A stretch of DNA of 64,000 bases. Origin: Alphaproteobacteria bacterium (GTDB lineage: Bacteria > Pseudomonadota > Alphaproteobacteria > Caulobacterales > Caulobacteraceae). Of this stretch, positions 20,321-44,625 are shown piece after piece. The stretch covers positions 4,968-68,967 of the forward strand of contig JANLPK010000052.1 in assembly GCA_031367205.1 (NCBI GenBank). The letters run 5' to 3'. Within the stretch, counting starts at the first letter, position 1. The number at the start of each line of letters is the position of its first letter. The notes beneath the pieces were generated by a model. It saw nothing but the letters and a program-made list of their open reading frames with translations, made no database searches and was not told where the DNA came from. Both the position numbers and the translations under genes were made by a program.

Positions 20321-21496
20321 GTGACGAAGTTCGAGCAACGCAGGAAGGCGATCATCCGGGCTGCGGTCGGTGTCATCAATCGCAAGGGCGTGAGGGGGAT
20401 GACCTTCAGTGAGGTCGCTACACGACTGGATTTGGTAACCAGTGCGATAAGTTACTACTTCCGCCGAAAGGAAGATCTGGCCGCAGCTTGCTTGATGGAG
20501 TCGATCGCGTGTTTCGAGCGGTTTGCGGATGCTGCTGACGCCGGGACCAACCCGAGGGAGCGGGTGCGACTTTACCTTTTGTCACTCATGCGCTTCTGGA
20601 GCGAATTGGCGACAGGCCAAGCTGACCCAGTCGTCCTGTTCAACGAAGTCCGCACGATCGGCGATCCCATGGTCGATGTCGCCTATCTCCAGATGTACCG
20701 ACGTCTGCGTCGACAGCTCGACATATCGCCACGCCTTGGGCCACTGGAACGCAATGCACGCACCCACCAGTTCATTACCCAAGCCATATGGATGACCCTC
20801 TGGGCCGACCGCTATGACCCCCGAGATTTTGAACGAATTGCTGAGCGTACAGCAGACATTCTGATAGGCGGCCTCGCGGCCACAGATCACCACTGGAGCT
20901 CCGCCACGCTACCGGCAGACCTGTCGGCGACTCCGCCGGACGCATTCATGACCGCGGCGACAGAATTGATCAACGAGGAGGGCTACCGAGGCGCTTCAGT
21001 TGATCGCATCGCTGCACGTCTCAACCTGACTAAGGGTGCTTTCTACCACCGTCACGACGCCAAGGACGATTTGGTGGTGGCCGGCTTCAATCGCACGCTA
21101 GCGCTTATCAGGCACGCTCAGGACCGAGCTGAAGCGACTGGCACCAACAGCCTTGAGCGCCTGTGCCTTGCTGTGGATGACTTGTTCAGGGGGCATTTGG
21201 ACAGGTCGGCACCGCTTTTGCGTATTTCGGCGCTCGCCGCTGTGCCCGAGGACATCGGCCAAGACATCTTCCTTCAGTTCAGCCGCGTTTCCTTGCACTT
21301 CGCAGGTATCATCGCCGACGGCGTGCGTGACGGATCGATCCGGGCGGTCGACCCCAATATCGCAGGCTTCATGATCACGGCAATGATCAGCGGTGCAACC
21401 GAGCTTACCAATTGGGTGCCCGGAGTGACCGCACCCAACGCGGCGTCTGCCTTCTTCCGTCCACTGGTCGAGGGCATGTTTTCCGACTCGGCTTGA
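20321..21496 (+). CDS. Tandem double-TetR transcriptional regulator (alternative TTG start at 20270)
   Basis: Two HTH units: RRKAIIRAA...GVRGMTFSEVATRLDLVTSAISYYF and FMTAATELINEEGYRGASVDRIAARLNLTKGAFYH. Confidence 0.88.
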   Translation: MTKFEQRRKAIIRAAVGVINRKGVRGMTFSEVATRLDLVTSAISYYFRRKEDLAAACLMESIACFERFADAADAGTNPRERVRLYLLSLMRFWSELATGQADPVVLFNEVRTIGDPMVDVAYLQMYRRLRRQLDISPRLGPLERNARTHQFITQAIWMTLWADRYDPRDFERIAERTADILIGGLAATDHHWSSATLPADLSATPPDAFMTAATELINEEGYRGASVDRIAARLNLTKGAFYHRHDAKDDLVVAGFNRTLALIRHAQDRAEATGTNSLERLCLAVDDLFRGHLDRSAPLLRISALAAVPEDIGQDIFLQFSRVSLHFAGIIADGVRDGSIRAVDPNIAGFMITAMISGATELTNWVPGVTAPNAASAFFRPLVEGMFSDSA

Positions 21497-21664
21497 GTGA
21501 AATATACTTCTATAGATTGAATTTGAAGTATGAGTATGTTTTCGGGGTTGATTTTCTGCTCAACATTGCTTGAATGCGTAGCGTAATTCCAAATATTCCG
21601 AGATGTTTTGACATTTTGGATAAGGCATTGGTGACGACCGTATCCAAGACCTGGGGAGAGTGGC

Positions 21665-22450
21665 TTGAAGGATTTTGACGATCACATCCGCGAGCTTGAA
21701 TCGCATGGCTACTCCATCATGCCGGGTGCCGTGTCGTCGGCTCTGTGTGATGAGATCGTCAGTGAAATCCAACGGCTCGAGGCCGAGATGGAGCCCTCCC
21801 TGAAGGGCAACGCCTTCGTTGGCTACAAGACGGTTCGCTATTTCGATCTGTTGAATCAAAGCGAGGTCTGGCAACGGGTGGCTGCACATCCAAACCTACT
21901 GCCTGTGCTGCGCGGGGTCTTAGGCAGAGACATGCTGCTGTCGACGATGGGTACAGCCGTGATCGGGCCCGGCGAACGGGCTCAACCGATCCATCGCGAC
22001 GATGAACTCTACGACATAGCCATGCCGCATCGGAATTTGGTCTGTAACACCATGTGGGCGCTGACAGATTTCACCGAGGAGAATGGTGCCACGCGGATCG
22101 TGCCCGATACCCATCGACAGGTTGCCGCGCCCGATCCGCGCGAGACCCATGCCTCTATCCCCGCGACAATGCCGAAGGGGAGCGTCTGCTTCGTATTGGG
22201 CACGGCCTATCATGGCGGTGGTGCCAACCAGACTGCAGATCGCCGCTGGGCGTTGACCATCAATTATTGCGCTGGTGCCATGCGCCAGCAGGAGAATCTG
22301 ATGCTCGCCACAACCCGCGAACGCGCGGCCGGCTTCGCACCTGAACTGCAGGCCCTGATCGGCTATCGACAGACCTTGCGCAATGTCGGCCACGTCAACG
22401 CCGCCGACCCGCGTCGCCTACTGGAACCTTACACCGTGGGGACAGATTGA
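21665..22450 (+). CDS. PhyH-family Fe(II)/2-oxoglutarate dioxygenase
   Basis: HRD (HxD), ALTDFTEENGATRIVP, AYHGGGANQT..RR. Confidence 0.9.
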   Translation: MKDFDDHIRELESHGYSIMPGAVSSALCDEIVSEIQRLEAEMEPSLKGNAFVGYKTVRYFDLLNQSEVWQRVAAHPNLLPVLRGVLGRDMLLSTMGTAVIGPGERAQPIHRDDELYDIAMPHRNLVCNTMWALTDFTEENGATRIVPDTHRQVAAPDPRETHASIPATMPKGSVCFVLGTAYHGGGANQTADRRWALTINYCAGAMRQQENLMLATTRERAAGFAPELQALIGYRQTLRNVGHVNAADPRRLLEPYTVGTD

Positions 22451-23448
22451 TGGATGACCTTTCACACCCTCAGACAACCCCTCCGCGGCGCCCTCGCGAC
22501 TTCGAATCTGCGCCTTATTTGAGCCAGAAACGCAACATCTCGCGCCTATATCCGGAATTGAAGGCGCTAGGATTACAGTCGCATATCGCGGACTTAGCGG
22601 TGCTGGGCTACACGATTGTGCCGCCGGACAAGGTTGCCCCTCCCGAGCATATCGCAGCCCTTCGCCAAGCCGTGCTAAGGGTCTCTGAGCAACGTACCCG
22701 CATAAAGCCAGACGAACAGGGCGGCTCGACCCACCTTGCCTCTCAGCATCCGCTCGGCCAATTTATGCGCTACGTACTGTTCGAAGATCAGATCTTTGAA
22801 CCGATCCTGACCAATCCGGTTCTCCTGGGACTGATCACGCACCTCGTCGGATATGACGCCTTGCTCAGCCTCAACGACGCCATGGTCAAGGGGCCTGGCG
22901 GTGCGGCGCTTTCAATTCACAATGACAACGGTGACCTCACAACAGCGGTTTATCCAGATCAACCCCAGACGGCAAACATCAACCTGCTGCTCAACGACTA
23001 CGAAGCCGGCAGCGGAACCATCGCCTTCCTGCCCGGAAGCCATCGCTTTCGCCGACAACCGACCCCCGGCGAAATGCGTGAACTGAAGGATGAATTGGTT
23101 CCGGTAATCGCGCCCGCCGGTTCGGCGGTGATCTGGCCTGCTAACACGTGGCACATGGCGTTTCCACGCACTGACCCTGGGCTCCGGCTCACCCTGCTGT
23201 ACGACTTTTGCCGCGGGCATTTGCAAACCCAATCGCCATTCCGCGCAGATATCACGCCTGATATCCTCGCCCGCAACCCCGCTCGCTTCGCGCAGTTGAT
23301 GCACGTCTACGGGGCTTTTCCGTTCCGAGAGGAAGACATTGACCGGAAACGAACCGCGCTCGGCTCTAAGCATCACAGTCTGTTCGACTGCGATCCCATA
23401 TGGACCGATTTCCATGACCTGGAGCGCGTGCGACGAGCAGCTGAGTAG
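22450..23448 (+). CDS. PhyH-family Fe(II)/2-oxoglutarate dioxygenase with N-terminal extension
   Basis: TGATG overlap with the previous gene; HND, FLPGSH, TWH..PR. Confidence 0.85.
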   Translation: MDDLSHPQTTPPRRPRDFESAPYLSQKRNISRLYPELKALGLQSHIADLAVLGYTIVPPDKVAPPEHIAALRQAVLRVSEQRTRIKPDEQGGSTHLASQHPLGQFMRYVLFEDQIFEPILTNPVLLGLITHLVGYDALLSLNDAMVKGPGGAALSIHNDNGDLTTAVYPDQPQTANINLLLNDYEAGSGTIAFLPGSHRFRRQPTPGEMRELKDELVPVIAPAGSAVIWPANTWHMAFPRTDPGLRLTLLYDFCRGHLQTQSPFRADITPDILARNPARFAQLMHVYGAFPFREEDIDRKRTALGSKHHSLFDCDPIWTDFHDLERVRRAAE

Positions 23449-23559
23449 AGCATGTTCCGATAACTGGGAACCGGTGATCAGATCCAAACCTGCTCTAACT
23501 TTTTGAATTATAGACCTTTTATCCCTCTGGACAATTCCGTCTAAAGGGAAATGGCCTTA
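23446..23559 (+). repeat. CIR-like repeat, full, degenerate copy
   Basis: TAGAGCATGTTCCGATAACTGGGAACCGG...TGCTCTAACTTTTTGAATTA...CGTCTAAAGGGAA...TTA; starts at the TAG stop of the dioxygenase gene. Confidence 0.88.
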
Positions 23560-23674
23560 GTCGACGCCCAATCTTTGGCGCAGTGATCATTCATGTGCCG
23601 GCTTACCCAAGGCGATGACGATCAGCTTCGAAAACACGACCTCGAATAAGCGATATGACATGGAGCGAAACAAA

Positions 23675-24490
23675 ATGACCGGACGTCTAGCGGGTAAGGT
23701 TGCCCTGATCACCGGCGGCACCAGCGGCATTGGTGAGGCGACAGTCGAGCTGTTTGTCGCGGAGGGTGCAAAGGTTGTGATTGTCGGCCGCAACACCGAC
23801 AAAGGTGACGCGATGGTCGGATCTTTGGGCACCAACGCGTGTTTCTTCAAGGCCGATGTCACCCAGGAAGCCGAGGTGAAGGCCGCCATCGACCATGCGG
23901 TTACAAGCTTCGGACGCCTCGACATTTTGTTCAACAACGCGGGCGGCGGCACGCTGGGTGGAGTGGATACATTTACCGGTGTGCAGTTCGATCACGCCAT
24001 GCACCTCCTGCTCGGCAGTGCCCTATTTGGCATCAAACACGCAGCGCCGATCATGAAGCTTCAGGGTTGGGGCGCGATCATCAATAACTCTTCGGTAGCT
24101 GCTCTGCGCACCCACATGGGCGGCTATCTCTATTCTGTGGCCAAGGCCGGCCTGACTCAGGCGACCAAGCTGGCGGGTATGGAACTCGGACGACATGGCA
24201 TCTCGGTCAACTGCATCTCGCCTGGCGGTATCGCAACGCCGATCTTCTTCGGTGGCTCGGCTCGCGCCGCCAGCATGGAGGATGCGCGTCTTGATGCCAC
24301 CATGGCCAAGCTCGAGCTCAACCTTGCCAAGGCGACACCGATTCAGAAATCCGGTCTCCCGAAAGATATCGCCGCTGCCGCCTTGTTCCTGGCCAGCGAC
24401 GATGGCCATTACGTCAATTGCCACGACTTGGTGGTAGACGCGGGCATGACGGCCGGCGGGCGAACCAATTTCGAAGACGCGGCGGGGTAG
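23675..24490 (+). CDS. Short-chain dehydrogenase/reductase
   Basis: TGGTSGIG, NNAG, YSVAK, VNCISPG; RBS GGAG before ATG 23675. Confidence 0.92.
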   Translation: MTGRLAGKVALITGGTSGIGEATVELFVAEGAKVVIVGRNTDKGDAMVGSLGTNACFFKADVTQEAEVKAAIDHAVTSFGRLDILFNNAGGGTLGGVDTFTGVQFDHAMHLLLGSALFGIKHAAPIMKLQGWGAIINNSSVAALRTHMGGYLYSVAKAGLTQATKLAGMELGRHGISVNCISPGGIATPIFFGGSARAASMEDARLDATMAKLELNLAKATPIQKSGLPKDIAAAALFLASDDGHYVNCHDLVVDAGMTAGGRTNFEDAAG

Positions 24491-24563
24491 CTCCAAGCTT
24501 AGCGAGCCAAGGTGGCCTCAGGGCCAGAGGGTTCCGTCTTAGGACGACGCATTCGGGCGACGC

Positions 24564-25445
24564 TCACCCCAGATTGGGTGTCGCCTGCTTGGGTCTCAAG
24601 TCAGCGCCCCACGTCACCACGGGTGGGTTGGCAGCGACGCTCAAAACTTCAGCTTGGCGACGCATCATGTCCGGCCAGAAGCTGCCGCTGAAAACGTAGA
24701 AGCGATCGCTCTTCAGAGCCTCCAATGTGTCTGACGCGATGGCGTCGGCCGAGATACCCCGGCCCTGAAAGACCTCCGAGCCCCGCACATGGGACGGATC
24801 ATTCCACTCCCGATCGCTCCAGGGCTGATCAGCAGCAGGACGGTTGCGGCCAGACTTATGGATCATGGTATCGACCATGCCGGGGCATACGACCGAGACG
24901 CCGATCTTGGTGTTCCAAGCCTTCAGTTCCGAATAGAGCGATTGGCTAATCGAGAGGGCGGCTGCTTTCGAAGAGCAATAGGGGGAATGCTCTCCGGTCC
25001 CGCTAAAGGCGGCAAGCGAGGCTGTGTTGATCACGTGACAAGGCTCGCCGTGAGCAATCATTCCCGGCACAAATGCCTTTATGCCATGAATAATGCCCCA
25101 GACATTCACGTCGTGAACCCATCGCCAATCGTCCAGACTCAATTCCCAGAGCGGACCGGTAATCGAGACGCCGGCATTATTGACAAGCACATGCGCATTG
25201 CCAAACTCAGCTTGTGTGGTTTGTGCCAACGCCTCAACTGAGGCGTAGTCAGTCACGTCAGTGCGCACACCGATTGTCTCAAACCCAGCCGCGCGCAAGG
25301 CTCCAACCGCGCCATCTAGGGCATCCTGTTGAATGTCGGCCAGCACCAGCCGCATGCCTTCTGCCCCAAAGGATCGCGCCATTGCCAAGCCGATGCCGCT
25401 AGCGCCGCCGGTAATGACGGCGACCTTACCCTTTAAGTCATCCAC
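24564..25445 (-). CDS. Short-chain dehydrogenase/reductase
   Basis: TGGASGIG, NNAGV, YCSSK, VCPGMVDT. Confidence 0.92.
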   Translation of the reverse strand: MDDLKGKVAVITGGASGIGLAMARSFGAEGMRLVLADIQQDALDGAVGALRAAGFETIGVRTDVTDYASVEALAQTTQAEFGNAHVLVNNAGVSITGPLWELSLDDWRWVHDVNVWGIIHGIKAFVPGMIAHGEPCHVINTASLAAFSGTGEHSPYCSSKAAALSISQSLYSELKAWNTKIGVSVVCPGMVDTMIHKSGRNRPAADQPWSDREWNDPSHVRGSEVFQGRGISADAIASDTLEALKSDRFYVFSGSFWPDMMRRQAEVLSVAANPPVVTWGADLRPKQATPNLG

Positions 25446-25462
25446 GGTCAGAATTCTCGCGT

Positions 25463-26335
25463 TCAGAGGTGATTTTCGAACCAGTCGAGCGCCGCCTGAC
25501 GCGCGGGCACCAGGTGCTTGTCATAGACTTGGTAATGGGTGCAGGGGAATGTGATGCGATCGCAGACGACGCCGTTGGCCTTAACGATCTCGTAGGCGGC
25601 ACCACCTTGCAAGGCCGCCTCGTTATACTCTTCAAACTCCGCGTCAATAAACAGCGATGGCGCACGGATTCCAGCAGCGCCTAACAGGGGCGAGTGGCCA
25701 AATTGGCGGGCCAAGTCGGGCGTTCCACGGAGCCCAGGAGAGTTATCGACACCCTGCGGAACAGGTGGATCGATCCGACCGCGAGCCTTATCGGCCATCC
25801 GCTGATAGGCAAGGTCGCGGTACCAATTCTCACGCGGATGTCCATAACCGCCGATCTGAGCAACCATGGCCTTAATTCGGGAGTCGGTACCGGCGACGAA
25901 GGTGACGTGACCTCCGCCATAACTTGAACCCCATAACCCGATGCGCTCGGGGTCAACGCCAGGTTCGCTCACCAAGTAGGCCAAACATGCCCGGATATCC
26001 GCGATTTGATCAACCGGATCAACGACCTCTCGTAGCACGTGTACCGGCAAGACAGCCTCACCCGCAGAGGTCAACGAGGGGGTGTTGGCCGTGGAAATCA
26101 GCCGACCATCGCTTTCACCCCAACCGCGATAGTCAAACACCAGGCAAGCATAGCCGGCTGCGACGAACGTTTCAGCGTACAGCTGAGTCAGATGCTCCTT
26201 CAGCCCACCCCATCCATGACAGAGCAAAATGCCAGGCCGCGATCCATCAGCACCTCGCGGGTGCATCATCACAGCGGCGAGGCGCGATCCCTCCGACCAT
26301 ATGCTGACGGCCTCTCGTTCGCCCTCGTACGTCAT
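25463..26335 (-). CDS. Alpha/beta hydrolase (S9/S15-like)
   Basis: CHGWGG, FDYRGWGESDG, nucleophile GSSYGG, His in CTHYQVY. Confidence 0.85.
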   Translation of the reverse strand: MTYEGEREAVSIWSEGSRLAAVMMHPRGADGSRPGILLCHGWGGLKEHLTQLYAETFVAAGYACLVFDYRGWGESDGRLISTANTPSLTSAGEAVLPVHVLREVVDPVDQIADIRACLAYLVSEPGVDPERIGLWGSSYGGGHVTFVAGTDSRIKAMVAQIGGYGHPRENWYRDLAYQRMADKARGRIDPPVPQGVDNSPGLRGTPDLARQFGHSPLLGAAGIRAPSLFIDAEFEEYNEAALQGGAAYEIVKANGVVCDRITFPCTHYQVYDKHLVPARQAALDWFENHL

Positions 26336-26604
26336 GTGCAGCTTACCTTCCCGTGACCATCTACCGCCGAGCAGATCGCAACCCGCACAAACCACATGCT
26401 CAAATTAATTGCCTGATGTCACGAAAATATCCGTTTGTCAGGACAATTTTGTCTCGACTTCAATACCACACCAACAATTATGTAATTCGGTAAAGGCGTG
26501 GTGACGAAAACGCGATCGGTGAAGCGGTTGGCCGCCACTTGAAGGGTTCCGGTCGAGGGCGCGCGCTGTGACCGCGTTTGAGTGGGTTTAGTTTGAGGCA
26601 AAAA

Positions 26605-27456
26605 CTACAACACCAATGGTCGACCCTGCGCATCAAGCGGGCCGACGGGGGTGATAGCCCGGCTCAGTACGCCGGTCTGAGTGGGCTTCTCTAGCCGCCC
26701 CAGCCCGTGCTGGATTGTGTAACCCAACCGCCGCAATAGGGCGGCGTTTTCAGGGGTCTCGTGCTGCGAATCCAAGCCCAGGAAAAAATTCTCCTGTTGG
26801 CGTATGAAGGGGCGGCAGAAATAGGTCAGGATCGCATGCCGCAACGTCGAGCTCGTCTGGTTTGCGCCCGTCCCATGTATCAGCCGCCCATCAAAAACCA
26901 GGGCCGAACCTGCGGGACCAGCAGCGGCCAAAGTCGGCGTTGTCTGGTCTACGGTCCACTCTTCTCGCGTGTGACTTCGCGGACTCAATCGGGTGCCGCC
27001 GTTCTCTTCTGTGAACTCGTCAAGCATCCAGGCAATGTTGGCGACCAGCGGCTTGGCGGTCGCAAACGGCACATAGCCCTGGTCGGTATGCAGATACATT
27101 GGCTCGCTACCCGGCGCGGCGATGTTCGCGGTTGCAGAGGACAGTAAAAAATCCTTCCCCAATAGATGACTCATCATTTCATCGACCAGTGGATGCAGCA
27201 CGAGATCTCGAAACGCTTGGCCCTTGTTGACCAGCATCCAGACCCGTTGATTAGTCCCACTGTCGCGCCAGTCGAGCCCGGCAGCGACCTCCCCCGCCGC
27301 TTGCGCCACGACCCGCGCCCGCAGTAACTCAATTTGATCCGGTGACAGTGCGTCGCGCACGATACAGTAGCCAAATGTGTCGAGGTCACTTAGGGCAACA
27401 CTTCGGTCGACCGTTGGTTTGGGCACGGAACGATTAGCTTTGGAATTCAAGTCCAT
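26605..27456 (-). CDS. PhyH-family Fe(II)/2-oxoglutarate dioxygenase
   Basis: LHTDQ, MLDEFTEENGGTRL.P.SH, LIHGTGANQT, RQQEN. Confidence 0.9.
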   Translation of the reverse strand: MDLNSKANRSVPKPTVDRSVALSDLDTFGYCIVRDALSPDQIELLRARVVAQAAGEVAAGLDWRDSGTNQRVWMLVNKGQAFRDLVLHPLVDEMMSHLLGKDFLLSSATANIAAPGSEPMYLHTDQGYVPFATAKPLVANIAWMLDEFTEENGGTRLSPRSHTREEWTVDQTTPTLAAAGPAGSALVFDGRLIHGTGANQTSSTLRHAILTYFCRPFIRQQENFFLGLDSQHETPENAALLRRLGYTIQHGLGRLEKPTQTGVLSRAITPVGPLDAQGRPLVL

Positions 27457-27470: not shown

Positions 27471-27980
27471 TCAGAGACGGGTTGACACGCTGCGATTAGA
27501 GATGAGCGAGCTTAGGCTTGGTCCGGAAACAATCTCAATCCAGTAGCCGTCGGGATCGCGAATGAAGGCTAGCCCCTTCATGGCACCTTCATCCGGGCGC
27601 TTAACGAAGTGAACACCCATCTCCTCAAAGCGTCGGCAAGCCTCTTCGACATTCGGCACAGAAATTCCGATATGGCCGAAACCGCGCGGCTCGGTGTTAC
27701 CGTTATGATAGGCGAACCCCGGATCAACCTCAGTGCCCCAGTTGTGGGTCAACTCCAGGAGCGCCGGCTGCTCGAATATCCATCGAGCGCGAGCGGCACT
27801 GTCCCTGGGCGGCTCGCCACCTGAATAGCCCAAAAAATAGAGGCTGAAACCAAGCTCAGTGAAGTCATATCGGTCAAGCAGGCGCATGCCCAGAACATCC
27901 ACGTAGAACGCCAGCGAGGGCTCCGGATCCCGAATGCGGAGCATTGTTTGGTTGAAGACGTAACCCTCAGTGGCACTCAT
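27471..27980 (-). CDS. gloA: Lactoylglutathione lyase (glyoxalase I), long Zn-type class
   Basis: [49 protein letters not shown]. Confidence 0.92.
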
Positions 27981-28423
27981 GCTTCAACGGATTTCGCCTG
28001 GGCCGTCCGCCGCATCCGCTCGACCTCTTCCCATCCCAGATAGGCCGTGAAGCGATCTCCATCAAAGTAGAGCAGAGGCCCCATGCAGATAAACAGGTAC
28101 TCGGTATCCTCAAGCGCCTCAGTCGCACCGTGCAGCACACCGTTGGGTTCATAAACGTAGTCGCCGGTTTCCAGAATCCCATCGCGGACTTTCAGCCGCC
28201 CCTTCAAGATGAAAGTATGGGAGGCGGAGAGGTGCTTATGGGGTGGGGCCGTAAATCCCTTTGCCCATCGGTAGAGGACCGCCCAGGCGCCGCTCTCAGA
28301 GCCCGTATAGAGCACTTTCGTGGCCGACATTTCCGAGTGGACAATCCAAGGCGTTTGGCTGGCCGCCACAAGGGTATCCTGTAGATCGCCGTTCAAGGGA
28401 CGAATGTCTTGAGGCAATGGCAT
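27977..28423 (-). CDS. Cupin dioxygenase, Dke1 (beta-diketone-cleaving)/DAD-like
   Basis: H62-x-H64 ... E92 ... H98 ([16 protein letters not shown]) and C-terminal MGPLLYFD...LGWEE; ATGA-coupled to gloA. Confidence 0.75.
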
Positions 28424-28641
28424 GGAACGAATCTCCGATCACTTATTGTTAGCCCGATGTCGAGCAGTGGGCATGGTGCCGAGTCCTAGGGAGGCCCATA
28501 CTTCAAGGCCTAACTTTTTCAACTACAACATCTCATTCGCCGAAACATGTCATTCCAACTTGACAAATGTGACTCCCACATGTGACGCCATACATACCGC
28601 AATGTCAAAAAAGAACGGCAGATACGCCGCCCGGGAGAGAG

Positions 28642-36499: not shown

Positions 36500-36992
36500 C
36501 TGGTGTTTCCCTCCCGTGGCCCTCTTATCGGAGCTCATCGCGACATCGCCAAGGGTGCTGCCTCGCGAAAAAATGCTACCGCACCCTCTTCAGGCATGCA
36601 CTCCCAAAATACCAGTCTATCAAATCAAGCACTCATCGGCTTATCAACCGGCGACCAAACTGCGGCCTTTGGGGCCGAGGCCGTCGCCCCCTGTCGGGTG
36701 CCGATCAAGGCCGAGCACTGGCAATTGCTCGCGGGCTTCTAGGTCGACTTGGTCGGCATCCGAGTTGGGATTGACCATCGGTGAATGGCGACGTCCAGGC
36801 GCAAATGGCGTCGGGTGGGATTTGTCGCCATCCATAGGCAGAGTGAGCTGCTCGCGCAGAGCAAGGATCAGGCGTGCTGGTTCGGAAAACTTGGCGTCTA
36901 CCTCACAGCAGATGATCGTAACCCTCGGCCAACGGTCGCCTCAAAGAAAGGCGGGTTTCGGCGCGACCTTAAAGTTACTCCGCAGACTTGGT

Positions 36993-37014
36993 CAGGCCGA
37001 AGCTCATCGGCCTG
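36993..37014 (-). terminator. Stem-loop downstream of the TonB receptor gene
   Basis: Perfect 8-bp stem CAGGCCGA/TCGGCCTG with a 6-nt loop, ~26 nt past the stop; no U tract. Confidence 0.3.
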
Positions 37015-37039
37015 TCCGCATCACAGATCGACGACCAAC

Positions 37040-39430
37040 CTACCAGCTATAAGCAACGTTGAAGCTGATCCGGCGAGGCGGCGCTGGGAAGCCAATTCTC
37101 GTCCCAGTCTGAGCCGGAGCCTCGAAGCGATAGTACCAGCGTTGATTATCGAAAACGTTAGTCGCAACCACCCCAAGGCTCCAGCCCTTGAGTGAATCGG
37201 TCGAGCGTAGGGTCACTCCCAGATCCAAGTTTTGATATGCGGGTTCGGTGATCGTGGGGTCCAAGGCGAACTCACCATGCGCCTGGAACGTTGCGTCTGC
37301 ACGGAAGAGTGCCTCCATGTTGCCGCTTATCGGCTGGATGTAGCCAGTGCCTAAGGTAGCGCTATACTTCGCGGCGAACCGCCGACCGTTGAAGTCCTGC
37401 ACCGGCGTATTCTGGGCGTTAAGGTGGCAACCTCCACCTTGGCCGAAGTTGAGCTGAGCGATATTACAGGCCACATCGACGCTCTTGGTATATCTCGCAT
37501 CAAGCAGGGTAGCGGCCCCGGTAAAGCGCAGTTGCGGCGTGGCCTGGTAGGCAAAGTCGCCTTCCACACCTTGCGAGCGCGCTGCGCCGGCGTTTGTCAG
37601 GAAAAAGCCGGTGCCCTGCCAAATCGAGAGCTGGAGGTCTGTGAAGTCCGACCGGAAAGCTGCCAGATTGATGGCGAGTTTGCGATCCAGCAGCCGCACC
37701 TTGGTGCCCAGTTCATAGTCGATGGAGTGTTCAGGCCGGAAGGTTTGGTCCGTCTTGTTGGGTGTGATCGAGTTGGCGTTGAATCCACCGCCCTTGAAGC
37801 CCTTGGTAACAGACGCATACATGTTTAGATTGCTGTCGGGCTTCCAGGATACCTTCAGTTCGGGCGTGACATTTTCTTCGGTCAGCGTGCCGAACGAATT
37901 GTGTGCCTGGCCTGATATGCCCGGGGCGAAGGTGTTTCCGATGGCGATCAGCGCGGCGTCGGCTGGGTTATTGGTATCGAGGAAACGAGTTGATCCAAAA
38001 GCAGCACGATTGAACTTGTCCTGGTCGTGCTTCGTCTCCCGACTCCATCGCAAGCCGCCGATCACATCGACTGAAGGCGTGAGGTGAAATGTGCCTTGTC
38101 CATAGGCGGAATAGGTTTCGGCGGTCTGATTCAGGAAGCGCAGGTTAGCCCATTTGAAGGCGTTCGAGTTGTTCGCCGGGTTGATGAACAAATTGATGTC
38201 GATATCGGTTCGCCGATCCACGAAGAAGTCGGTCTTGAACCAATAGAGGCCGGCTACATAGTCGAAACGGTTTTCGCCGGTTGAGACGATCCGAAATTCT
38301 TGACTGGACTGACTGAACCGTTGGGTGATGGGCTCGAACAGGAAGGGCGTTGGGCTCCAATCCACATCACGCTGATCATTGGAGCGATAGGAATTATAGC
38401 CGGTGATGGATCGAAGCGTGGCAAAGCCGATATCATAGGTGATGTCTAGGGCTGCATTTTTCGAGATGACGTGCGCGGACTCTTGCTGCTTTGACGTATT
38501 GTAGTTCAGGCCGGGGCTGAAGGCCGGGTCATAGAAGCGATAGGTACTTCGGTTCGCGGCAGCGCCCACGTCCAAGGGGGTTGGCAGGGGCAGCAGCGTC
38601 ACGGCGTTGGTGATTCGCGGGCGACCCACAGCGGTTCCGCTGATGTCGGAGATCTTGAAGTCACGGCCGATGCGGTTGTATTCGGACCATTCGACTTTGC
38701 CGCGCAGGCTGAGGTCGTCAGTCGGTTTCCAGAGTAGGGTTCCGCGGACGATCTTGTCTTCTTCCTGCTCCTCCTTCTGGCCAGTGAGCGAGTTGTTCAA
38801 ATAGCCGTCTTCCTTCGCCCAGCGAAAAGCAAGGCGACCGGACAGCGTGCTGGTGATCGGGCCGTTGACGACCGCCTCAACGGCGCGTCGGCCTGTCACG
38901 GGACCGTATTCCCCGCGCACCGAAACCGACGGATCCGCGGTTGGCGTGCCCGAACGCACGATAATAGCGCCGGCAATGGTATTCTTGCCGAACAGGGTGC
39001 CCTGGGCTCCCTTCAGCACCTCAACATGCTCAACGTCGAGGAAACTTCCACGAAATTGACGTTCGCGGCCAGCGTAGATCTCGTCGGTAAACAGGCCCAC
39101 ATCCTGATCGATGCCGAAATTGAGGCTGGCCCCGAAGCCGCGGATCGATATTCCCGTCTGTTCACCGCCTTCCCTGACCACCAGGCCTGGGACATAGTTC
39201 GACAGTTGATCCAAATTCTTGATCGCCAAATCTTTGATCGTCTGACCCGATACGACCGATACGGAAACCGGAACGTCCTGCAGGGTCTGCGGTCGCTTTG
39301 TGGCCGTGACGATCACTTCACTTACCTCACTTGCCGCAACTTCTCGCGGCACCGACTGGGCCTCGGCGGCCAGAGGCGACATCAATGCGCCTGCAGCGGC
39401 GAGAGCAATAATTGAACAGGCGGATTTCAT
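37040..39430 (-). CDS. TonB-dependent receptor
   Basis: Signal peptide, EVIVTATKR, plug motif VEVLKGAQGTLFGKNTIAG, FKGGGFN, C-terminal aromatic residue (VAYSW). Confidence 0.95.
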   Translation of the reverse strand: MKSACSIIALAAAGALMSPLAAEAQSVPREVAASEVSEVIVTATKRPQTLQDVPVSVSVVSGQTIKDLAIKNLDQLSNYVPGLVVREGGEQTGISIRGFGASLNFGIDQDVGLFTDEIYAGRERQFRGSFLDVEHVEVLKGAQGTLFGKNTIAGAIIVRSGTPTADPSVSVRGEYGPVTGRRAVEAVVNGPITSTLSGRLAFRWAKEDGYLNNSLTGQKEEQEEDKIVRGTLLWKPTDDLSLRGKVEWSEYNRIGRDFKISDISGTAVGRPRITNAVTLLPLPTPLDVGAAANRSTYRFYDPAFSPGLNYNTSKQQESAHVISKNAALDITYDIGFATLRSITGYNSYRSNDQRDVDWSPTPFLFEPITQRFSQSSQEFRIVSTGENRFDYVAGLYWFKTDFFVDRRTDIDINLFINPANNSNAFKWANLRFLNQTAETYSAYGQGTFHLTPSVDVIGGLRWSRETKHDQDKFNRAAFGSTRFLDTNNPADAALIAIGNTFAPGISGQAHNSFGTLTEENVTPELKVSWKPDSNLNMYASVTKGFKGGGFNANSITPNKTDQTFRPEHSIDYELGTKVRLLDRKLAINLAAFRSDFTDLQLSIWQGTGFFLTNAGAARSQGVEGDFAYQATPQLRFTGAATLLDARYTKSVDVACNIAQLNFGQGGGCHLNAQNTPVQDFNGRRFAAKYSATLGTGYIQPISGNMEALFRADATFQAHGEFALDPTITEPAYQNLDLGVTLRSTDSLKGWSLGVVATNVFDNQRWYYRFEAPAQTGTRIGFPAPPRRISFNVAYSW

Positions 39431-40077
39431 AAGCGGTCTCCCATGATGTGCCCAAACCCGGTTAGCGGGTCCTGGCACCCAGCGTCACTCGGCCACTGGC
39501 CGGCACCTCAATGGCGCGCTGTTGACCCGACATTGCGAACCACTGTCAAAATTGTCAAGACGATTTTATTATGTGGGTTACATACCCGAGTCACTTATTT
39601 TTCGAAATCTCCCCATTTTACAAGGAGTTCGGTATATTGTAGGTCATACTATTGAACGAATTTTAGTAATCGGAATGCTTTGTTGATCGCTTCGCGATCG
39701 ACCGCGGGGAGCAGGAAGCCATGACTGCGGAAGCCCTCGAACCTCGAAATGACTAGATCGGGAGCCTCTCGCTACAGATGGACATCGCTTCGTGTCCTTT
39801 GTCCTGATCGCCCCAGCCAAAGTCTCTGCAAGGGGTCTGGGATGGAGCGAGAGGTCGGCCTTCGGTATGGCTTCGCCTGCGCGGGCCCGCGATATCGCTA
39901 TGGCTTCGGCAGCGCTCCCCTTTCGAAACCCGCGTGGCCCGACAGAGTCGCCCAGTTAAGCCAGTCTGGGGCAACGAAATAGATACCGGATGGTCAAATT
40001 AGCATTTGACGCTTGAACGAGAGAGCCGCACGATCATGTGCCTTCGGTGGAATTGGCCCCACGGCTGGAGAAACGCC

Positions 40078-41565
40078 TTGGCGACCCATACCAAGCCCCA
40101 AATTGAGGCTCGACGGCTATCGATGCCGACCCGTGTTTTTTACGGCTTCGGCTCCGTTGCCTTCGGAGTGAAGGACAACGGCTTCTCCTGCTTCCTGCTG
40201 ATCTTCTACAATCAGGTGATTGGGCTGCCCTCGGTTACCGTTGGCTTGGCCATCATGGTAGCATTGGTCGTCGATGCCTTTCTTGACCCGATCGTTGGCC
40301 AGATCTCCGACAACTGGCGCTCAAGGTGGGGCCGTCGTCACCCGTTCATGTATGCTGCCGCGCTGCCGGTTGCGGTGTCGTACCTGCTGCTGTGGAACCC
40401 GCCGCGTAGGTGGAGCCACGAGGCGTTGTTCTTCTATTTGATCGGGGTCGCGATCCTAATCCGGAGCTTCATCACCTTCTACGAAATCCCCTCATCGGCG
40501 CTCGCGGCTGAACTCAGCACGGACTATGATGAGAGGACCCGTTTGCTGAGCTACCGATATCTGTTCGGCTGGATCGGCGGCCTCACCATGTATTTCGCTG
40601 CGTTGCGGGTTTTCCTCACTCCAAATGCCGTTCACCCGACGGGGCAACTTAATCCTGAGGGCTATGCCCACTACGGCATCGCTGCTGCCGTGCTGATGCT
40701 CGTTGCCATCCTTGTCTCAGCCGCCGGTACCCATCGGGAAATTCCCCATTTGCGAGAGGCGCCTCGCCGCAAGGCAACCATGGCGATCTTGGTGCGTGAG
40801 ATGGTCGGCACCATGGCCCATCCGTCCTTCCTGGTGATCCTGGTCGCCAGCATTTTCAACGCGATGGCCATCGGCCTCGGCTTCGCGATCAATCTCTATT
40901 TTCAGACTTTCTTTTGGGAATTGCCGGCCGATCAGATTGCAAATTTCACCTTCTCAAGCCTAGCAGCTGCGCTGTTCGCCTTTGCAGCCGCCCCGTGGAT
41001 TTCCAAGCGGTTTGGCAAGAAGCGCGCGGCCATGACCCTGATCCTCGTCTCGCTGGTGCTTACCGTCGCGCCCATTGTACTGCGGCTTGTGGGGTTCTTC
41101 CCAGCGAATGGATCAGCCTGGGTTTTCCCGTTCTTGCTTGTCCAGAACACGATTGCCTTGGGCTTTGGAATCATCGGCCAGATCATGTTCTCGTCGATGA
41201 TCGCCGATGTGACGGAGGACTCCGAACTGCGTACCGGCCGCCGTCAGGAAGGTCTGTTCTTTGCCGCTGCCGCCTTCGTTGCCAAGGCCGTGACAGGCCT
41301 AGGAATTTTTGTTTCCGGATTGATGTTGGCCGTCGTCCACTTCCCCGAAGCCGCCAAACCGGGACAGGTGGCCCCCGAGGTGGTGCGAAATCTGGGCCTC
41401 GTCTACGTGCCGACCCTGGCGGTCCTATACGGATTAGCAGTCCTAATTCTCTCCGGATACCGCATTAGTCGGGCGAGTCACGAAGAGTCGCTGCGAAAGC
41501 TCGCGGCGGCGGCAGACCTCGTCGCCGAAGGGGAACCCGCATCGCAAATGGGCAAGTTACTATGA
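40078..41565 (+). CDS. GPH (MelB-like) MFS transporter, paralog of 28642-30117
   Basis: TTG start after RBS GGAG; DPIVGQISDNWRSRWGRRHPFMYAAALP, TGRRQEGLFF. Confidence 0.9.
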   Translation: MATHTKPQIEARRLSMPTRVFYGFGSVAFGVKDNGFSCFLLIFYNQVIGLPSVTVGLAIMVALVVDAFLDPIVGQISDNWRSRWGRRHPFMYAAALPVAVSYLLLWNPPRRWSHEALFFYLIGVAILIRSFITFYEIPSSALAAELSTDYDERTRLLSYRYLFGWIGGLTMYFAALRVFLTPNAVHPTGQLNPEGYAHYGIAAAVLMLVAILVSAAGTHREIPHLREAPRRKATMAILVREMVGTMAHPSFLVILVASIFNAMAIGLGFAINLYFQTFFWELPADQIANFTFSSLAAALFAFAAAPWISKRFGKKRAAMTLILVSLVLTVAPIVLRLVGFFPANGSAWVFPFLLVQNTIALGFGIIGQIMFSSMIADVTEDSELRTGRRQEGLFFAAAAFVAKAVTGLGIFVSGLMLAVVHFPEAAKPGQVAPEVVRNLGLVYVPTLAVLYGLAVLILSGYRISRASHEESLRKLAAAADLVAEGEPASQMGKLL

Positions 41566-41599
41566 CGTCCTAAGCCGTTGGTACGCACGCGGGTTCGCC

Positions 41600-41714
41600 C
41601 AGAGCATGTTCCGATAAGTGGGAACCGCCCATAGGACGAAAGTATGCTCTAACTCTTTGAATTAGAGCCCAGTTTCTCCCTTTAGACGTGACCGTCTAAA
41701 GGGAACGGGCTCTA
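41600..41714 (+). repeat. CIR-like repeat, full copy
   Basis: CAGAGCATGTTCCGATAAGTGGGAACCG...ATGCTCTAACTCTTTGAATTAGAGCCC...CCCTTTAGACG-TGAC-CGTCTAAAGGGAACGGGCTCTA. Confidence 0.9.
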
Positions 41715-41780
41715 GCCTGGTCTTAGGTGCAGACCGGGCGACACCGCCTGGATAACTTGAGTGGCCGCAGGAGATATTCG

Positions 41781-43340
41781 ATGTCCGTCGTTGATGTGCT
41801 GAGCCGGGAGTTCGCAACCCTGCCCGAGGTGATGACCGAGTGGGCCAGAGAGGCACCCAGCCGGCCGGCCTTGGCCGATCTCGATCAGCAGATGACCTAT
41901 GGCGAGCTCGACCGGATGATGGACCGCATCGCCGTGGCCTTACGACGTGACGGCGTTGCACCGGGCGAGGCGGTGGCTATCTGCGCCGCGAGCTGCATTG
42001 CTTACGCGGCGGCCTTTTTCGGCATCCTGCGAGCCGGTGCCGTGGTCGCGCCGCTGGCACCGTCCTCGACGCCGGAGAGTTTGGTCGGCATGATGGCCGA
42101 CTGTAAGGCTAAGGTGTTGTTCCTCGACGCGGCCGTCGGAGAGGCGCTGGCCGGTATGGCTGATAGCATTGCAGCACGACGCGTGGCCATTGACGGATCG
42201 CAAGCCGGGGAAGCCTTCGACGGATGGCTCGCGCCGCAGGGTGCTAAGCCGCCGTTAGTTGATACGCCGCCCGGCCAGGGCTTCAACATCATCTACTCAT
42301 CAGGCACCACCGGCGCACCCAAGGGCATCGTCCAGCCTCACAGCATGCGTTGGGGCCAGATGCGCTTAGGGGTCTATCCGCGCGATGCGGTGACGATGAT
42401 CTCCACGCCGCTATACTCCAACACAACCCTGGTGAGTTTCTTGCCAACCCTGACCAATGGTGGGCTGGCGGTGTTGATGGCTAAGTTTGACGCCGGACAA
42501 TTTCTGGAGCTTTCGCAGAGATATAGGGCAACACACGCCATGTTGGTGCCTGTGCAGTATCGTCGCCTGATGCGGCAGCCGGATTTCGACTCCTATGACC
42601 TCTCGAGCTACCAGGTGAAGTTTTCGACCAGCGCGCCCTTCTCTGCAGAACTGAAAGCTGATGTGCTATCGCGCTGGCCTGGTGGCTTGGTGGAATACTA
42701 CGGTATGACTGAAGGTGGTGGTTCTTGCATGCTGCTGGCGCATGAGCATCCTGATAAGCTTCACACCGTCGGCCAGCCCATCCCCGGCCACGACATACGG
42801 CTGATCGACGAGGACGGCAATTTGCTGTCACAAGGTGAAATCGGCGAAATTGTCGGGCGCTCACCCGCCATGATGGTCGGCTACCACAATCAGCCCGGCA
42901 AGACGCGCGAGGCCGAGTGGACGAGCCCGGACGGGTTGCGGTTCATCCGAACTGGGGATGTCGGCCGGTTCGACGAGGACGGCTTCCTCACCCTGATGGA
43001 CCGCAAGAAGGACATGATCATCTCCGGTGGTTTCAACATATATCCCAGCGACTTAGAGGCCGAGATCGTCCGGCATGACTCTGTGTTGGAAGCAGCGGTC
43101 GTCGGCGTGCCCTCCGACCAGTGGGGAGAAACGCCCGTCGCCTTCGTGGCCCTGAAACCCGGTCACGAAATCGTCGCTGCCACCTTGAAGGACTGGATCA
43201 ACTCCAAGCTCGGCAAGACCCAACGCCTGGCCGACCTGCGACTGATCGCGACACTTCCACGGAGCCACATAGGCAAAGTGCTCAAGAGGGAGCTGCGCGA
43301 AGGCTACACGACGACCCCAGCAGCGGAACCAAGCCTGTGA
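41781..43340 (+). CDS. Acyl-CoA synthetase (class I adenylate-forming enzyme)
   Basis: YSSGTTGAPKG, YYGMTE, TGDVG, DRKKDMIISGGFNIYP, LPRSHIGK; RBS AGGAG. Confidence 0.93.
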   Translation: MSVVDVLSREFATLPEVMTEWAREAPSRPALADLDQQMTYGELDRMMDRIAVALRRDGVAPGEAVAICAASCIAYAAAFFGILRAGAVVAPLAPSSTPESLVGMMADCKAKVLFLDAAVGEALAGMADSIAARRVAIDGSQAGEAFDGWLAPQGAKPPLVDTPPGQGFNIIYSSGTTGAPKGIVQPHSMRWGQMRLGVYPRDAVTMISTPLYSNTTLVSFLPTLTNGGLAVLMAKFDAGQFLELSQRYRATHAMLVPVQYRRLMRQPDFDSYDLSSYQVKFSTSAPFSAELKADVLSRWPGGLVEYYGMTEGGGSCMLLAHEHPDKLHTVGQPIPGHDIRLIDEDGNLLSQGEIGEIVGRSPAMMVGYHNQPGKTREAEWTSPDGLRFIRTGDVGRFDEDGFLTLMDRKKDMIISGGFNIYPSDLEAEIVRHDSVLEAAVVGVPSDQWGETPVAFVALKPGHEIVAATLKDWINSKLGKTQRLADLRLIATLPRSHIGKVLKRELREGYTTTPAAEPSL

Positions 43341-43416
43341 GCGTTTGGCTTGGCGCACGGCAGGAGGCTATGAGAGCTCCGGGGTCTAGACACCTGGACC
43401 AGAGGCTGGACGCCCA

Positions 43417-44625
43417 ATGACCCGCGACCCGAGCCCCCGCTTTCTGAGACGCCGAAATGCCATCGTGGTGTCGGCGGTGCAGGCGCTCAATCGCAAGGGC
43501 GTGCGCGGCATGACGCTCGCCGACGTCGCTTCCAGTCTTGGCATCGTGCCGACCGGGATCATCTACTATTTCAAAAACAAAGAGGCACTCGCCGCTGCAT
43601 GCTTCGAGCGCGCGATCGCGCTCTATGTCGAGCTGATTGGCGTGGGCGAAAACCATGTCACCAGCCGCGAGCGCATTGAGGCGTTTAACGCCGCCTATTT
43701 CGAATACCGCCGTTCAGAAGCCCTGGGAGGGGCCAACGAGATTGCCACCTTCAATGACGTGCGAGCGCTCAATCTCGAACCGATCAATCAAGCCTATATC
43801 GAGATGTTCCGCGCTGCGCGCCGCTTGTTCGACGGACCCGAGCCGTCCGGCCTTTCCCGCGCAGAGCGAAACGCTCGAACTCACTTGCTGCTGTCCCAAG
43901 CCTTTTGGTCGGTGGTCTGGCTGCCGCGGTTTGAGACCGAAGACTACAGCCGCGCCGCTGCGCGAGCCTCGGCGATCCTAACGGACGGGCTGGCGACGCC
44001 GGGCTTGGCCTGGGCACCCGTACAGCTCCCGCCGCTGGTCGAGGTCGGGCAGGATGTGGATTCCGGCGAGATGTTCCTGAAGGCCGCCACCCAGTTGATC
44101 AATGAGGAAGGCTATCTGGGCGCATCGGTGGAGAAAATATCTGCGCGGATCAATGTCACCAAGGGGGCCTTCTACCATCACAACGAGACCAAGGATGAGT
44201 TGGTAATAGCCTGCTTCGAGCGCACTTTTGATGTGATGCGACGGGCGATTCGCGCTGCCGAAGCGGTGTCGAGATCCGGCTATCAAACACTGTCCACCGC
44301 GGCTTCCGCCCTCATCGAGCATCAGATGTCTGGCGCAGCGCCGTTGTTGCGGACCTCGGCGCTCACCTCGGCTCCGGAATCGATACAACCGCAGCTTCTG
44401 GCCAAGTTCGACCGGATATCCGACCTTTTCGCATCGATGATCTCCGACGGTATCGCCGACGGTTCCGTGCGGCCGGTCGATGTCAATATCGCAGCTCAGA
44501 TGATCACCGCAGCGATCAACGCCGCTGCGGAACTGACCTACTGGACACCCGGCGCGTCAGCGGAACAGGCCAGCCTGTTCTATTTGAGGCCGATGTTCGA
44601 AGGGCTTCTTTCGCCTGCCGACTGA
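43417..44625 (+). CDS. Tandem double-TetR transcriptional regulator, paralog of 20321-21496
   Basis: Two HTH units (RKGVRGMTLADVA...IIYYF; LINEEGYLGASVEKISARINVTKGAFYHH). Confidence 0.9.
   Translation: MTRDPSPRFLRRRNAIVVSAVQALNRKGVRGMTLADVASSLGIVPTGIIYYFKNKEALAAACFERAIALYVELIGVGENHVTSRERIEAFNAAYFEYRRSEALGGANEIATFNDVRALNLEPINQAYIEMFRAARRLFDGPEPSGLSRAERNARTHLLLSQAFWSVVWLPRFETEDYSRAAARASAILTDGLATPGLAWAPVQLPPLVEVGQDVDSGEMFLKAATQLINEEGYLGASVEKISARINVTKGAFYHHNETKDELVIACFERTFDVMRRAIRAAEAVSRSGYQTLSTAASALIEHQMSGAAPLLRTSALTSAPESIQPQLLAKFDRISDLFASMISDGIADGSVRPVDVNIAAQMITAAINAAAELTYWTPGASAEQASLFYLRPMFEGLLSPAD

Follow-up and report, generated by a model that had tools for sequence, protein, structure and literature searches.

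A putative catabolic gene cluster from a Caulobacteraceae bacterium with orthologues around the polyvinyl alcohol locus

We analyzed a 64,000-nucleotide stretch of DNA, hereafter the window, from an Alphaproteobacteria bacterium of the Caulobacteraceae (assembly GCA_031367205.1, contig JANLPK010000052.1, positions 4,968 to 68,967), which originates from a freshwater-sediment metagenome; a search among RNA sequencing runs found none containing it. At 20.3 to 44.6 kb it carries an island of 17 genes in about eight transcription units, as judged by strand, spacing, and 4-bp overlaps (Table 1). By orthology the island appears to be a variant of an uncharacterized gene set that accompanies the pva locus for polyvinyl alcohol (PVA) metabolism. 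Assignment of gene families by Pfam recovered every family named for positions 20321 to 44625 in an original prediction made from the sequence, although that list had overlooked the glyoxalase I gene, gloI. The flanking tandem TetR regulators are paralogues as had been proposed (42% identity over the full length), and so are the two GPH-type transporters of the major facilitator superfamily (MFS; 51% identity). When the island proteins were further scored against the curated cut-offs of NCBIfam, only gloI passed. The soluble enzymes have no predicted signal peptides, and the alpha/beta hydrolase likely comprises 290 amino acids (aa) from Met21, matching its ~290-aa homologues without signal peptide. 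In all three PhyH dioxygenases the HxD...H iron triad is intact, as is the 2-oxoglutarate Arg, with H110, D112, H183, and R194 invariant in the alignment, and the proteins score 52 to 99 bits in Pfam against a gathering cut-off of 22.

Table 1. Genes of the island and copies of the dispersed repeat in the window. Percentages are amino acid identities to orthologues; L numbers designate loci in other genomes, plasmids, and contigs. ORF, open reading frame; SDR, short-chain dehydrogenase/reductase; TBDR, TonB-dependent receptor.
Feature	Position	Strand	Remarks
tetR1, single-chain tandem TetR	20321-21496	+	ORF from 20270, likely start 20321; two TetR_N plus TetR_C_24
phyH1, PhyH Fe(II)/2-oxoglutarate dioxygenase	21665-22450	+	Pfam E 7e-28; 80% in L174
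phyH2, PhyH dioxygenase	22447-23448	+	4-bp overlap with phyH1; 74% in L174
sdr1, SDR	23615-24490	+	64% in L172, 71% in L170, 81% in L174, 58% in L007
sdr2, SDR	24564-25445	-	58-75% orthologues adjoining the hydrolase or in its cluster: L081, L082, L170, L172, L174
abhyd, cytoplasmic alpha/beta hydrolase, esterase/lactonase-like	25463-26335	-	ORF to 26395, likely start Met21; AXE1/DLH/S15 Pfam matches
phyH3, PhyH dioxygenase	26605-27456	-	61% in L081; 44% as SDR-PhyH fusion in L083
gloI, glyoxalase I (lactoylglutathione lyase)	27471-27980	-	TIGR00068, 186.3 bits vs cut-off 120
Dke1-like 3-His cupin (Pfam Cupin_7)	27977-28423	-	4-bp overlap with gloI; PDB 3bal, phmmer E 3.9e-10
mfs1, GPH/MFS_2 inner-membrane transporter	28582-30117	+	40-51% in L081, L085, L170, L172, L174
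sdr3, SDR	30114-30932	+	4-bp overlap with mfs1; 60% in L087, in the cupin's cluster
LCC-type single-chain biotin carboxylase (BC-BCCP-CT)	30990-34361	-	Pfam domain order; PDB 4rcn, E = 0, 1069 bits
coaT2, fused double family-III CoA-transferase	34358-36538	-	two CoA_transf_3 stretches; 4-bp overlap with LCC
TonB-dependent outer-membrane receptor (TBDR)	37040-39478	-	plug and barrel domains; signal peptide
mfs2, GPH/MFS_2 transporter	40006-41565	+	Pfam; paralogue of mfs1
Acyl-CoA ligase (AMP-forming)	41727-43340	+	74% in L170; 60% in L172, directly after cytC; 58% in L085, L171, L133
tetR2, single-chain tandem TetR	43417-44625	+	Pfam; two TetR_N stretches
Composite repeat, partial copy, left of island	4217-4246		
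Composite repeat, partial copy (first hairpin)	20021-20064		repeat family D1
Composite repeat, full copy inside island	23447-23565		between phyH2 and sdr1
Composite repeat, full copy inside island	41601-41720		between mfs2 and ligase
Composite repeat, full copy	44660-44775		just past tetR2

In pva chemistry, 1,3-diols are oxidized to beta-diketones, after which C-C cleavage by hydrolysis gives a carboxylate and a methyl ketone (PMC11644497). Only three genes, oph (oxidized-PVA hydrolase, OPH), pvaA, and cytC, are credited with PVA metabolism, and in Sphingopyxis sp. 113P3 the operon is chromosomal (PMC4611681). Within 10 kb of these 113P3 genes (locus L172) lie orthologues of eight window genes, i.e., seven at 37 to 64% identity (hydrolase 55%, sdr2 58%, PhyH 37%, ligase 60%, sdr1 64%, MFS_2 47%, and a TetR) plus a TonB receptor at 22%; the flanks also hold a thioesterase, a thiolase, and a 3-hydroxyacyl-CoA dehydrogenase (3HCDH). 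In Phenylobacterium (L170), a comparable set comprises a PvaA-like protein, TBDR, sdr1 (71%), ligase (74%), tetR2 (66%), thiolase, hydrolase (69%), sdr2 (75%), 3HCDH, MFS_2 (51%), and cytochrome c, and the pyrroloquinoline quinone-type quinohaemoprotein encoded there shares 60% identity with the characterized PvaA of 113P3 across 98% of its length. The window's left block is most closely matched by a single contig (L087 and L174) with ten orthologues in one run (sdr3 60%, cupin 86%, MFS_2, phyH2 74%, phyH1 80%, sdr1 81%, hydrolase 61%, sdr2 65%, TBDR, and tandem TetR 59%), followed directly by PvaA (69% to the L170 protein) and OPH (63%). Orthologues of tetR2 (59 to 66%) adjoin pvaA-like genes or the ligase in L174 and L170, and those of sdr1 adjoin the ligase and pvaA in relatives. 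In the PVA degrader Povalibacter, OPH and PvaA are likewise accompanied by an SDR (54% to sdr1), a TBDR, and a 3HCDH.

Compared with the 113P3 locus, the window has two more PhyH genes as well as the operon of LCC and CoA-transferase and the Dke1-like cupin paired with glyoxalase I, and it is without PvaA, OPH, cytochrome c, thiolase, and 3HCDH. Since pvaA and oph were tested for and are absent, the cluster does not belong to the pva locus in the strict sense; by orthology it would instead be a variant of the gene set that surrounds it. The original prediction had known no described pathway with this gene content. The set can now be placed as a relative of the extended pva locus, while the extension itself is uncharacterized, and in the searchable literature we found no paper treating the genes that flank the pva operon. 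A connection to PVA through the 113P3 plasmid, which carries a related cluster (see below), was dropped since the pva operon is chromosomal, and the link was re-established from the chromosomal locus only. An OPH-like role for the alpha/beta hydrolase was also discarded, with no OPH among its PDB matches and no similarity to the 113P3 OPH.

Two side observations concern the pva genes of 113P3. Its plasmid NZ_CP009453.1 carries at 146 to 156 kb (L171) a second, apparently undescribed oph-pvaA-like operon, whose OPH and PvaA-like protein share 75% and 65% identity with the 113P3 OPH and the L170 PvaA-like protein, respectively; after this operon come cytochrome c, ligase (58%), sdr1 (65%), PhyH (40%), TBDR, and a glutathione-dependent GFA protein. 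In L172 the PvaA gene call (9354 to 12442, 813 aa) overlaps oph by ~450 bp, and its start is probably over-extended because the homologues measure 630 to 670 aa.

Six to ten orthologues of island genes recur together in Phenylobacterium, Sphingopyxis, another genome assembly, and metagenomic contigs. L081, for instance, combines a tandem TetR (56%), TBDR, hydrolase (74%), sdr2 (66%), MFS_2, and phyH3 (61%), and L133 combines tetR2 (47%), ligase (58%), mfs2 (50%), TBDR, cupin (63%), hydrolase (61%), and sdr2 (64%). A counterpart on mobile DNA is a 19-kb homologous cluster on the mobilizable plasmid of Sphingopyxis sp. 113P3, where a Qat defence system and a recombinase gene enclose it. Encoded in this cluster are a thiolase, MFS_2, hydrolase (51%), tandem TetR (41%), sdr2 (53%), and ligase (58%) together with an IS3-broken TBDR, gloA (65%), cupin (69%), a thioesterase, and another MFS_2. 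The plasmid clusters L085 and L171 hold further subsets of island genes, and a plasmid search with phyH3 gave no match. The core orthologue groups re-assemble in varied order in at least six genomes or contigs. The core genes are thus not scattered in relatives, given their co-occurrence in several genera, which bears out, for the core, the coherence that had been proposed for the cluster.

Both flanking regulators resemble Mce3R in domain layout, in that two TetR DNA-binding domains lie in one chain of ~400 aa. Mce3R is an asymmetric TetR protein with non-palindromic operators and controls lipid genes (PMC13492129). By analogy, the island's tandem TetRs may bind non-palindromic sites. Three promoter regions of the island share the AT-rich motif CTTGACAATTTTGAC (four matches in the window vs 0.9 expected; 3 of 100 shuffles reach four). 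It was considered as a shared TetR operator and was not used as evidence. The motif includes a -35-like TTGACA, and L081, L083, L085, L087, L133, and L142 are without it. A general promoter and terminator scan gave counts no higher than in shuffles.

The cupin is a single domain of 148 aa whose top PDB match is Dke1 of Acinetobacter johnsonii (3BAL), both in the direct search (Table 1) and with a profile of 29 sequences (E 1.7e-8). A predicted model built from the alignment (pLDDT 88) has the same structure as its best Foldseek match (TM score 0.73, root mean square deviation 2.0), and the next fold matches, 2,4'-dihydroxyacetophenone dioxygenase (DAD) and a Methylibium "acetylacetone dioxygenase," are equally good; common to these enzymes is the cleavage of a C-C bond beside a carbonyl. 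Dke1 binds Fe through His62/His64/His104, with Tyr70, Arg80, Glu98, and Thr107 in the second shell, and converts acetylacetone to acetate and methylglyoxal (PMC4019311). In the window cupin, H62/H64/H98 align with this 3-His site and R80, E92, and T101 correspond to Arg80, Glu98, and Thr107, all of them invariant in 29 homologues. The two proteins, alike as single-domain cupins of ~150 aa, are ~23% identical, and the window protein differs in belonging to Pfam Cupin_7 (ChrR-like). Taken together, active-site conservation and predicted fold point to a Dke1-like, putatively diketone-cleaving dioxygenase. The 4-bp overlap points to translational coupling of the cupin and gloI. Methylglyoxal is the substrate of glyoxalase I, and its being at the same time the product of Dke1, with the two genes overlapping, therefore supports the idea, already put forward in the original prediction with the hydrolase as an alternative, that a beta-diketone is cleaved by the cupin; the orthologues in the pva flanks point in the same direction.

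The pairing of the cupin with glutathione-dependent enzymes recurs. Among 74 metagenomic loci with a cupin homologue, glyoxalase I or a glutathione S-transferase (GST) lies within three ORFs of the cupin in 28, and the directly adjoining gene encodes a GST in 19, glyoxalase I in 8, and an SDR in 14; a thiolase is found in 11 of the loci and a glutaredoxin-rhodanese protein in 12. Orthologues of gloI (62 to 72%) are present in the cupin's locus in 11 loci, L085 among them. On the Sphingopyxis plasmid the operon order is cupin, gloA, and GlcD-like 2-hydroxyacid dehydrogenase, which would suit a route from methylglyoxal through lactoyl-glutathione and D-lactate to pyruvate. The likeness to the glyoxalase system (GloI/GloII, methylglyoxal to D-lactate) thus extends from gloI, which scores above the equivalog cut-off, to this plasmid gene order. 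Unlike that system, the island has no metallo-beta-lactamase GloII, and we can only guess that the alpha/beta hydrolase might act as the thioester hydrolase in its place.

In marine and freshwater cupin loci (L090 to L169), the neighbors often include a 371-aa GST-like protein, a glutaredoxin-rhodanese fusion, a rhodanese, DUF1329, and a thiolase, a sulfur/glutathione context that is not accounted for by the diketone model. A CDO-type 3-His thiol dioxygenase, an identity prompted by the rhodanese and glutaredoxin neighbors, was rejected, as it is absent from the top 50 fold matches of the cupin. The 145-aa Dke1-like cupin of Methylibium petroleiphilum (Mpe_A3659, PDB 2o1q) was deposited as "putative acetyl/propionyl-CoA carboxylase, alpha subunit," an odd name that may echo a cupin-carboxylase gene neighborhood like that in the window.

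In the island's carboxylase a single chain comprises the BC, BCCP, and CT domains; the protein is homologous to the single-chain enzyme MapLCC (4rcn) over the full length, shares its domain order, and has the AMKM biotin motif (peptide MEAMKMEH). LCCs accept C2 to C16 acyl-CoAs and are reported to prefer long chains (PMC6491548). What sets the window gene apart from MapLCC is its location in one operon with a double family-III CoA-transferase, within a cluster of beta-diketone type. Its closest relatives (70 to 76%) belong to Caulobacterales and Phenylobacterium metagenome-assembled genomes (MAGs). In Phenylobacterium, tetR2 orthologues (56 to 77%) lie directly upstream of LCC; coaT2 (56%) is followed by LCC in a Caulobacterales MAG (L010), and sdr1 (58%) is followed by LCC in a gammaproteobacterium (L007). 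In a Streptosporangiaceae population (L083 and L084), LCC (54%) is joined by the hydrolase (59%), an SDR-PhyH fusion (44% to phyH3), sdr1 (59%; its orthologue lies near LCC in L083), single and double CoA-transferases, and a thiolase. L085, L087, L133, and L170 have no LCC. Across the 80 nearest LCC loci, the commonest neighbors, i.e., SDRs, acyl-CoA dehydrogenases, double CoA-transferases, and ligases, are each found in only 8 to 12. The operon of LCC and coaT2 is an accessory module, being richer in GC and joined to the core genes only in one actinobacterial population.

The SDR-PhyH fusion protein (614 to 632 aa) adjoins the hydrolase orthologue in both actinobacterial loci (11345 to 13243 in L083, 11390 to 13234 in L084), and the presence of both domains in one protein suggests that the SDR and PhyH activities act in sequence. 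As regards coaT2, the nearest characterized relatives are formyl-CoA:oxalate and succinate-(hydroxymethyl)glutarate CoA-transferases (E 1e-38), and a dicarboxylate substrate is conceivable since these act on dicarboxylates. A DddD-like dimethylsulfoniopropionate lyase was rejected for this protein, which has no specific family match and dicarboxylate CoA-transferases as its nearest models.

On balance, the island is probably a cluster for uptake and cytoplasmic catabolism of an oxygenated aliphatic compound via a beta-ketol or beta-diketone, a variant of the set around the pva operon. In such a pathway the TonB receptor and the two GPH-type MFS transporters, whose families are clear, would import the substrate. 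The PhyH dioxygenases would hydroxylate it and the SDRs oxidize the secondary alcohols to a 1,3-dicarbonyl or acyloin, possibly with an acetylacetone-type methyl-ketone end. The Dke1-like cupin would then use O2 to cleave the dicarbonyl, yielding a carboxylate along with a 2-oxoaldehyde (in the simplest case methylglyoxal) that glyoxalase I would capture on glutathione, a coupling backed by the recurrent adjacency of the two genes. The cytoplasmic alpha/beta hydrolase may open an ester, lactone, or thioester. The resulting acids would be activated by the AMP-ligase or, if oxidative trimming gives dicarboxylates, by the fused family-III CoA-transferase. In the least certain step, LCC might carboxylate an acyl-CoA residue that resists plain thiolysis. 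The two tandem TetRs could keep the operons repressed until they bind an intermediate of the pathway, probably an acyl-CoA. Because the window has neither the periplasmic PvaA/OPH/cytochrome c front end nor the thiolase/3HCDH pair of its relatives, it would either take up already-fragmented material or depend on genes elsewhere in the genome.

A number of observations weigh against this interpretation. PVA is a synthetic polymer, so that a natural 1,3-polyol or beta-ketol substrate is implied. Neither PvaA (tblastn with the L170 PvaA-like protein, E <= 1e-5) nor OPH (tblastn with the 113P3 OPH, E <= 1e-3) was found in the window, thiolase and 3HCDH are also absent from it, and none of the 22 PDB matches of the hydrolase at E <= 0.001 is named oxidized-PVA hydrolase. 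Tyr70 and Glu69 of Dke1 are replaced by Thr70 and His in the window cupin, and the DAD fold fits equally well, so that the enzyme might cleave an alpha-hydroxyketone instead of a beta-diketone. As about two-thirds of the cupin loci hold no other island gene, the cupin and glyoxalase I could form a self-standing module. The candidate shared operator is not conserved in related loci. The LCC operon has a GC content of 0.63 to 0.64 vs 0.57 to 0.60 for the neighboring genes, and the hydrolase is found in none and PhyH in 5 of the 80 nearest LCC loci. With these loci mostly without the core and the operon GC-richer, LCC's membership in the pathway rests on one actinobacterial population and a shared regulator family, and the earlier view of carboxylase and CoA-transferase as a fixed part of the set is not upheld.

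The last of these points lead to a rather unlikely reading in which the island is a mosaic of independent modules lying side by side, each with its own TetR and with no single substrate: a PhyH/SDR/hydrolase block, dicarbonyl disposal by cupin and glyoxalase I, general acyl-CoA assimilation by LCC and CoA-transferase, and the transporters. Besides the GC difference, LCC's neighbors vary in nearly all of the 80 loci, four of the related loci have no LCC, most cupin loci are without the other island genes, and the repeats at 23447 and 41601 part sub-blocks. Set against this, the same orthologue groups occur together, if reordered, in at least six genomes or contigs, one regulator family is common to LCC loci and core loci, LCC is clustered with hydrolase, PhyH, sdr1, and CoA-transferases in an actinobacterium, and the L087/L174 cluster unites the cupin, PvaA-OPH, and the core genes. 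Improbable, too, is the catabolism of hydroxy-acid oligo-esters or lactones (polyhydroxyalkanoate or cutin-type oligomers) or of 3-oxo-acyl-homoserine lactones, with the hydrolase acting first and the SDRs serving as hydroxy-acid dehydrogenases. Such a scheme would fit the best PDB and NCBIfam relatives of the hydrolase, which are polyester hydrolases, MHETase-like proteins, acetyl-xylan esterases, and the UilS lactonase (113 bits vs a cut-off of 400), as well as the scores of the SDRs against 3-hydroxybutyrate dehydrogenase models, below cut-offs, and the addition in relatives of thiolase and 3HCDH with no acyl-CoA dehydrogenase. No model cut-off is reached, however, and the three PhyH proteins and the Dke1-like cupin with GloI are left without a role; the PvaA/OPH linkage also favors C-C cleavage of oxidized polyols over ester polymers.

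The membership of the dioxygenases in the PhyH family recalls alpha-oxidation of methyl-branched (phytanic-type) lipids, where PhyH would hydroxylate acyl-CoA at position 2, the family-III protein would racemize 2-methylacyl-CoA, and LCC would carboxylate propionyl- or branched acyl-CoA. Alpha-methylacyl-CoA racemases do belong to family III and are among the PDB matches of coaT2 (E 2e-16), geranyl- and methylcrotonyl-CoA carboxylases provide a textbook precedent for biotin carboxylases in branched-lipid catabolism, and the acyl-CoA range of LCCs given above would be suitable. We nonetheless hold this route to be very improbable: the island has no 2-hydroxyacyl-CoA lyase, acyl-CoA dehydrogenase, or hydratase, coaT2 is far nearer the formyl-CoA and succinate-(hydroxymethyl)glutarate transferases than the racemases, and the cupin-GloI pair and the PvaA/OPH linkage would go unexplained. 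Scarcely credible, finally, is a locus for glycoside or carbohydrate utilization, even though a TonB receptor and a GPH symporter are the usual sugar-uptake pair in Caulobacterales, the nearest MFS_2/GPH models are MelB, YagG, and a glucuronide transporter (all below cut-offs), and a GH36 alpha-galactosidase gene (48171 to 50279) lies 3.5 kb beyond tetR2 and 6.6 kb from mfs2. No glycosidase, kinase, or isomerase is encoded inside the island, the MFS_2 orthologues accompany hydrolase, SDR, and ligase genes in relatives without a glycosidase, and CoA chemistry dominates the gene set.

The interpretation centered on beta-ketol or beta-diketone catabolism hence retains the gene content, the logic of a beta-diketone route, and a coherent core as originally predicted, whereas the border repeats, the argument from third codon positions (both discussed below), and the fixed place of the carboxylase are not supported. 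The substrates suggested then, i.e., diarylheptanoids, plant or fungal polyketides, and branched lipids, found no specific support. A more speculative proposal, which we regard as possible although doubtful, is that the conserved set represents the intracellular half of a PVA-type pathway, with uptake of vinyl-alcohol-like fragments (1,3-polyol or beta-ketol), oxidative loss of a methyl-ketone end through the Dke1-like and glyoxalase enzymes, and CoA-dependent shortening; this would give LCC its first physiological context, and the real substrates might be natural 1,3-polyol lipids or polyketide polyols. Such compounds, not yet recognized as a bacterial carbon source, come into consideration in view of the abundance of PvaA relatives in environmental data, with 5973 proteins at E <= 1e-30.

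In any event, the island and its relatives name candidate genes for the intracellular fate of PVA cleavage products, a question that is directly testable since Sphingopyxis sp. 113P3, Phenylobacterium haematophilum, and Povalibacter uvarum, all carriers, are cultured. They also tie Dke1-like dioxygenases, to our knowledge known from a single isolate, to the glyoxalase/glutathione system across many environmental bacteria, offer the single-chain LCC carboxylases a first pathway context, and hint at natural 1,3-polyols as a widespread substrate of bacteria.

The window contains a dispersed intergenic repeat, a composite of ~120 nt made of three hairpins with the units AGAGCATGTTCCGATAAG...; GCTCTAAC..TTGAATTAGAGC; and TCCCTTTAGACG..CGTCTAAAGGGAA (Table 1). 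No Rfam family matched the repeat, nor did any match elsewhere in the window. The CIR-like repeats originally placed at the island's ends are real (20021 and 44660) but cannot be taken as its borders, since full copies also sit within the island. Mobile-DNA hallmarks were not apparent: there is no tRNA in the window, and no integrase or transposase among the proteins scanned, i.e., those of the island and its immediate flanks.

Most island genes have a GC content of 0.57 to 0.60, compared with 0.60 to 0.65 in the rest of the window, and composition varies within the island. The GC content at third codon positions (GC3) is 0.63 to 0.72 in the genes at 20 to 31 kb, the only ones in which it is slightly low, 0.70 to 0.75 in the carboxylase operon, and 0.68 to 0.74 in the right-hand genes. 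The impression that the island is less GC3-biased than the cus-like genes to its left was correct (0.63 to 0.75 vs 0.78 to 0.83), but this does not single the island out, as the remaining window is at 0.66 to 0.76. It is the cus region, rather than the island, that is the compositional outlier, because the rest of the window has GC3 values like those of the island.

As to the surroundings, a 722-aa ORF convergent with tetR2 (44846 to 47014, minus strand) has a clear N-terminal signal peptide and a coding-like GC3 of 0.73, with no match in Pfam, NCBIfam, or PDB sequences. Two long non-coding stretches lie inside the island, 36539 to 37039 (501 bp, upstream of the coaT2/LCC operon) and 39479 to 40005 (527 bp, between the divergent TBDR and mfs2 genes); neither an Rfam match nor a terminator signal accounts for them. 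Further to the right, at 47394 to 51253, a carbohydrate block encodes a DUF6855 protein, the GH36 alpha-galactosidase, and an SMP-30/gluconolactonase-like protein, and is unrelated to the island in relatives. On the left, the cus/RND-like region (~10800 to 20020) has the highest GC (0.65 to 0.70) and GC3 (0.74 to 0.83) of the window and may itself be acquired DNA.

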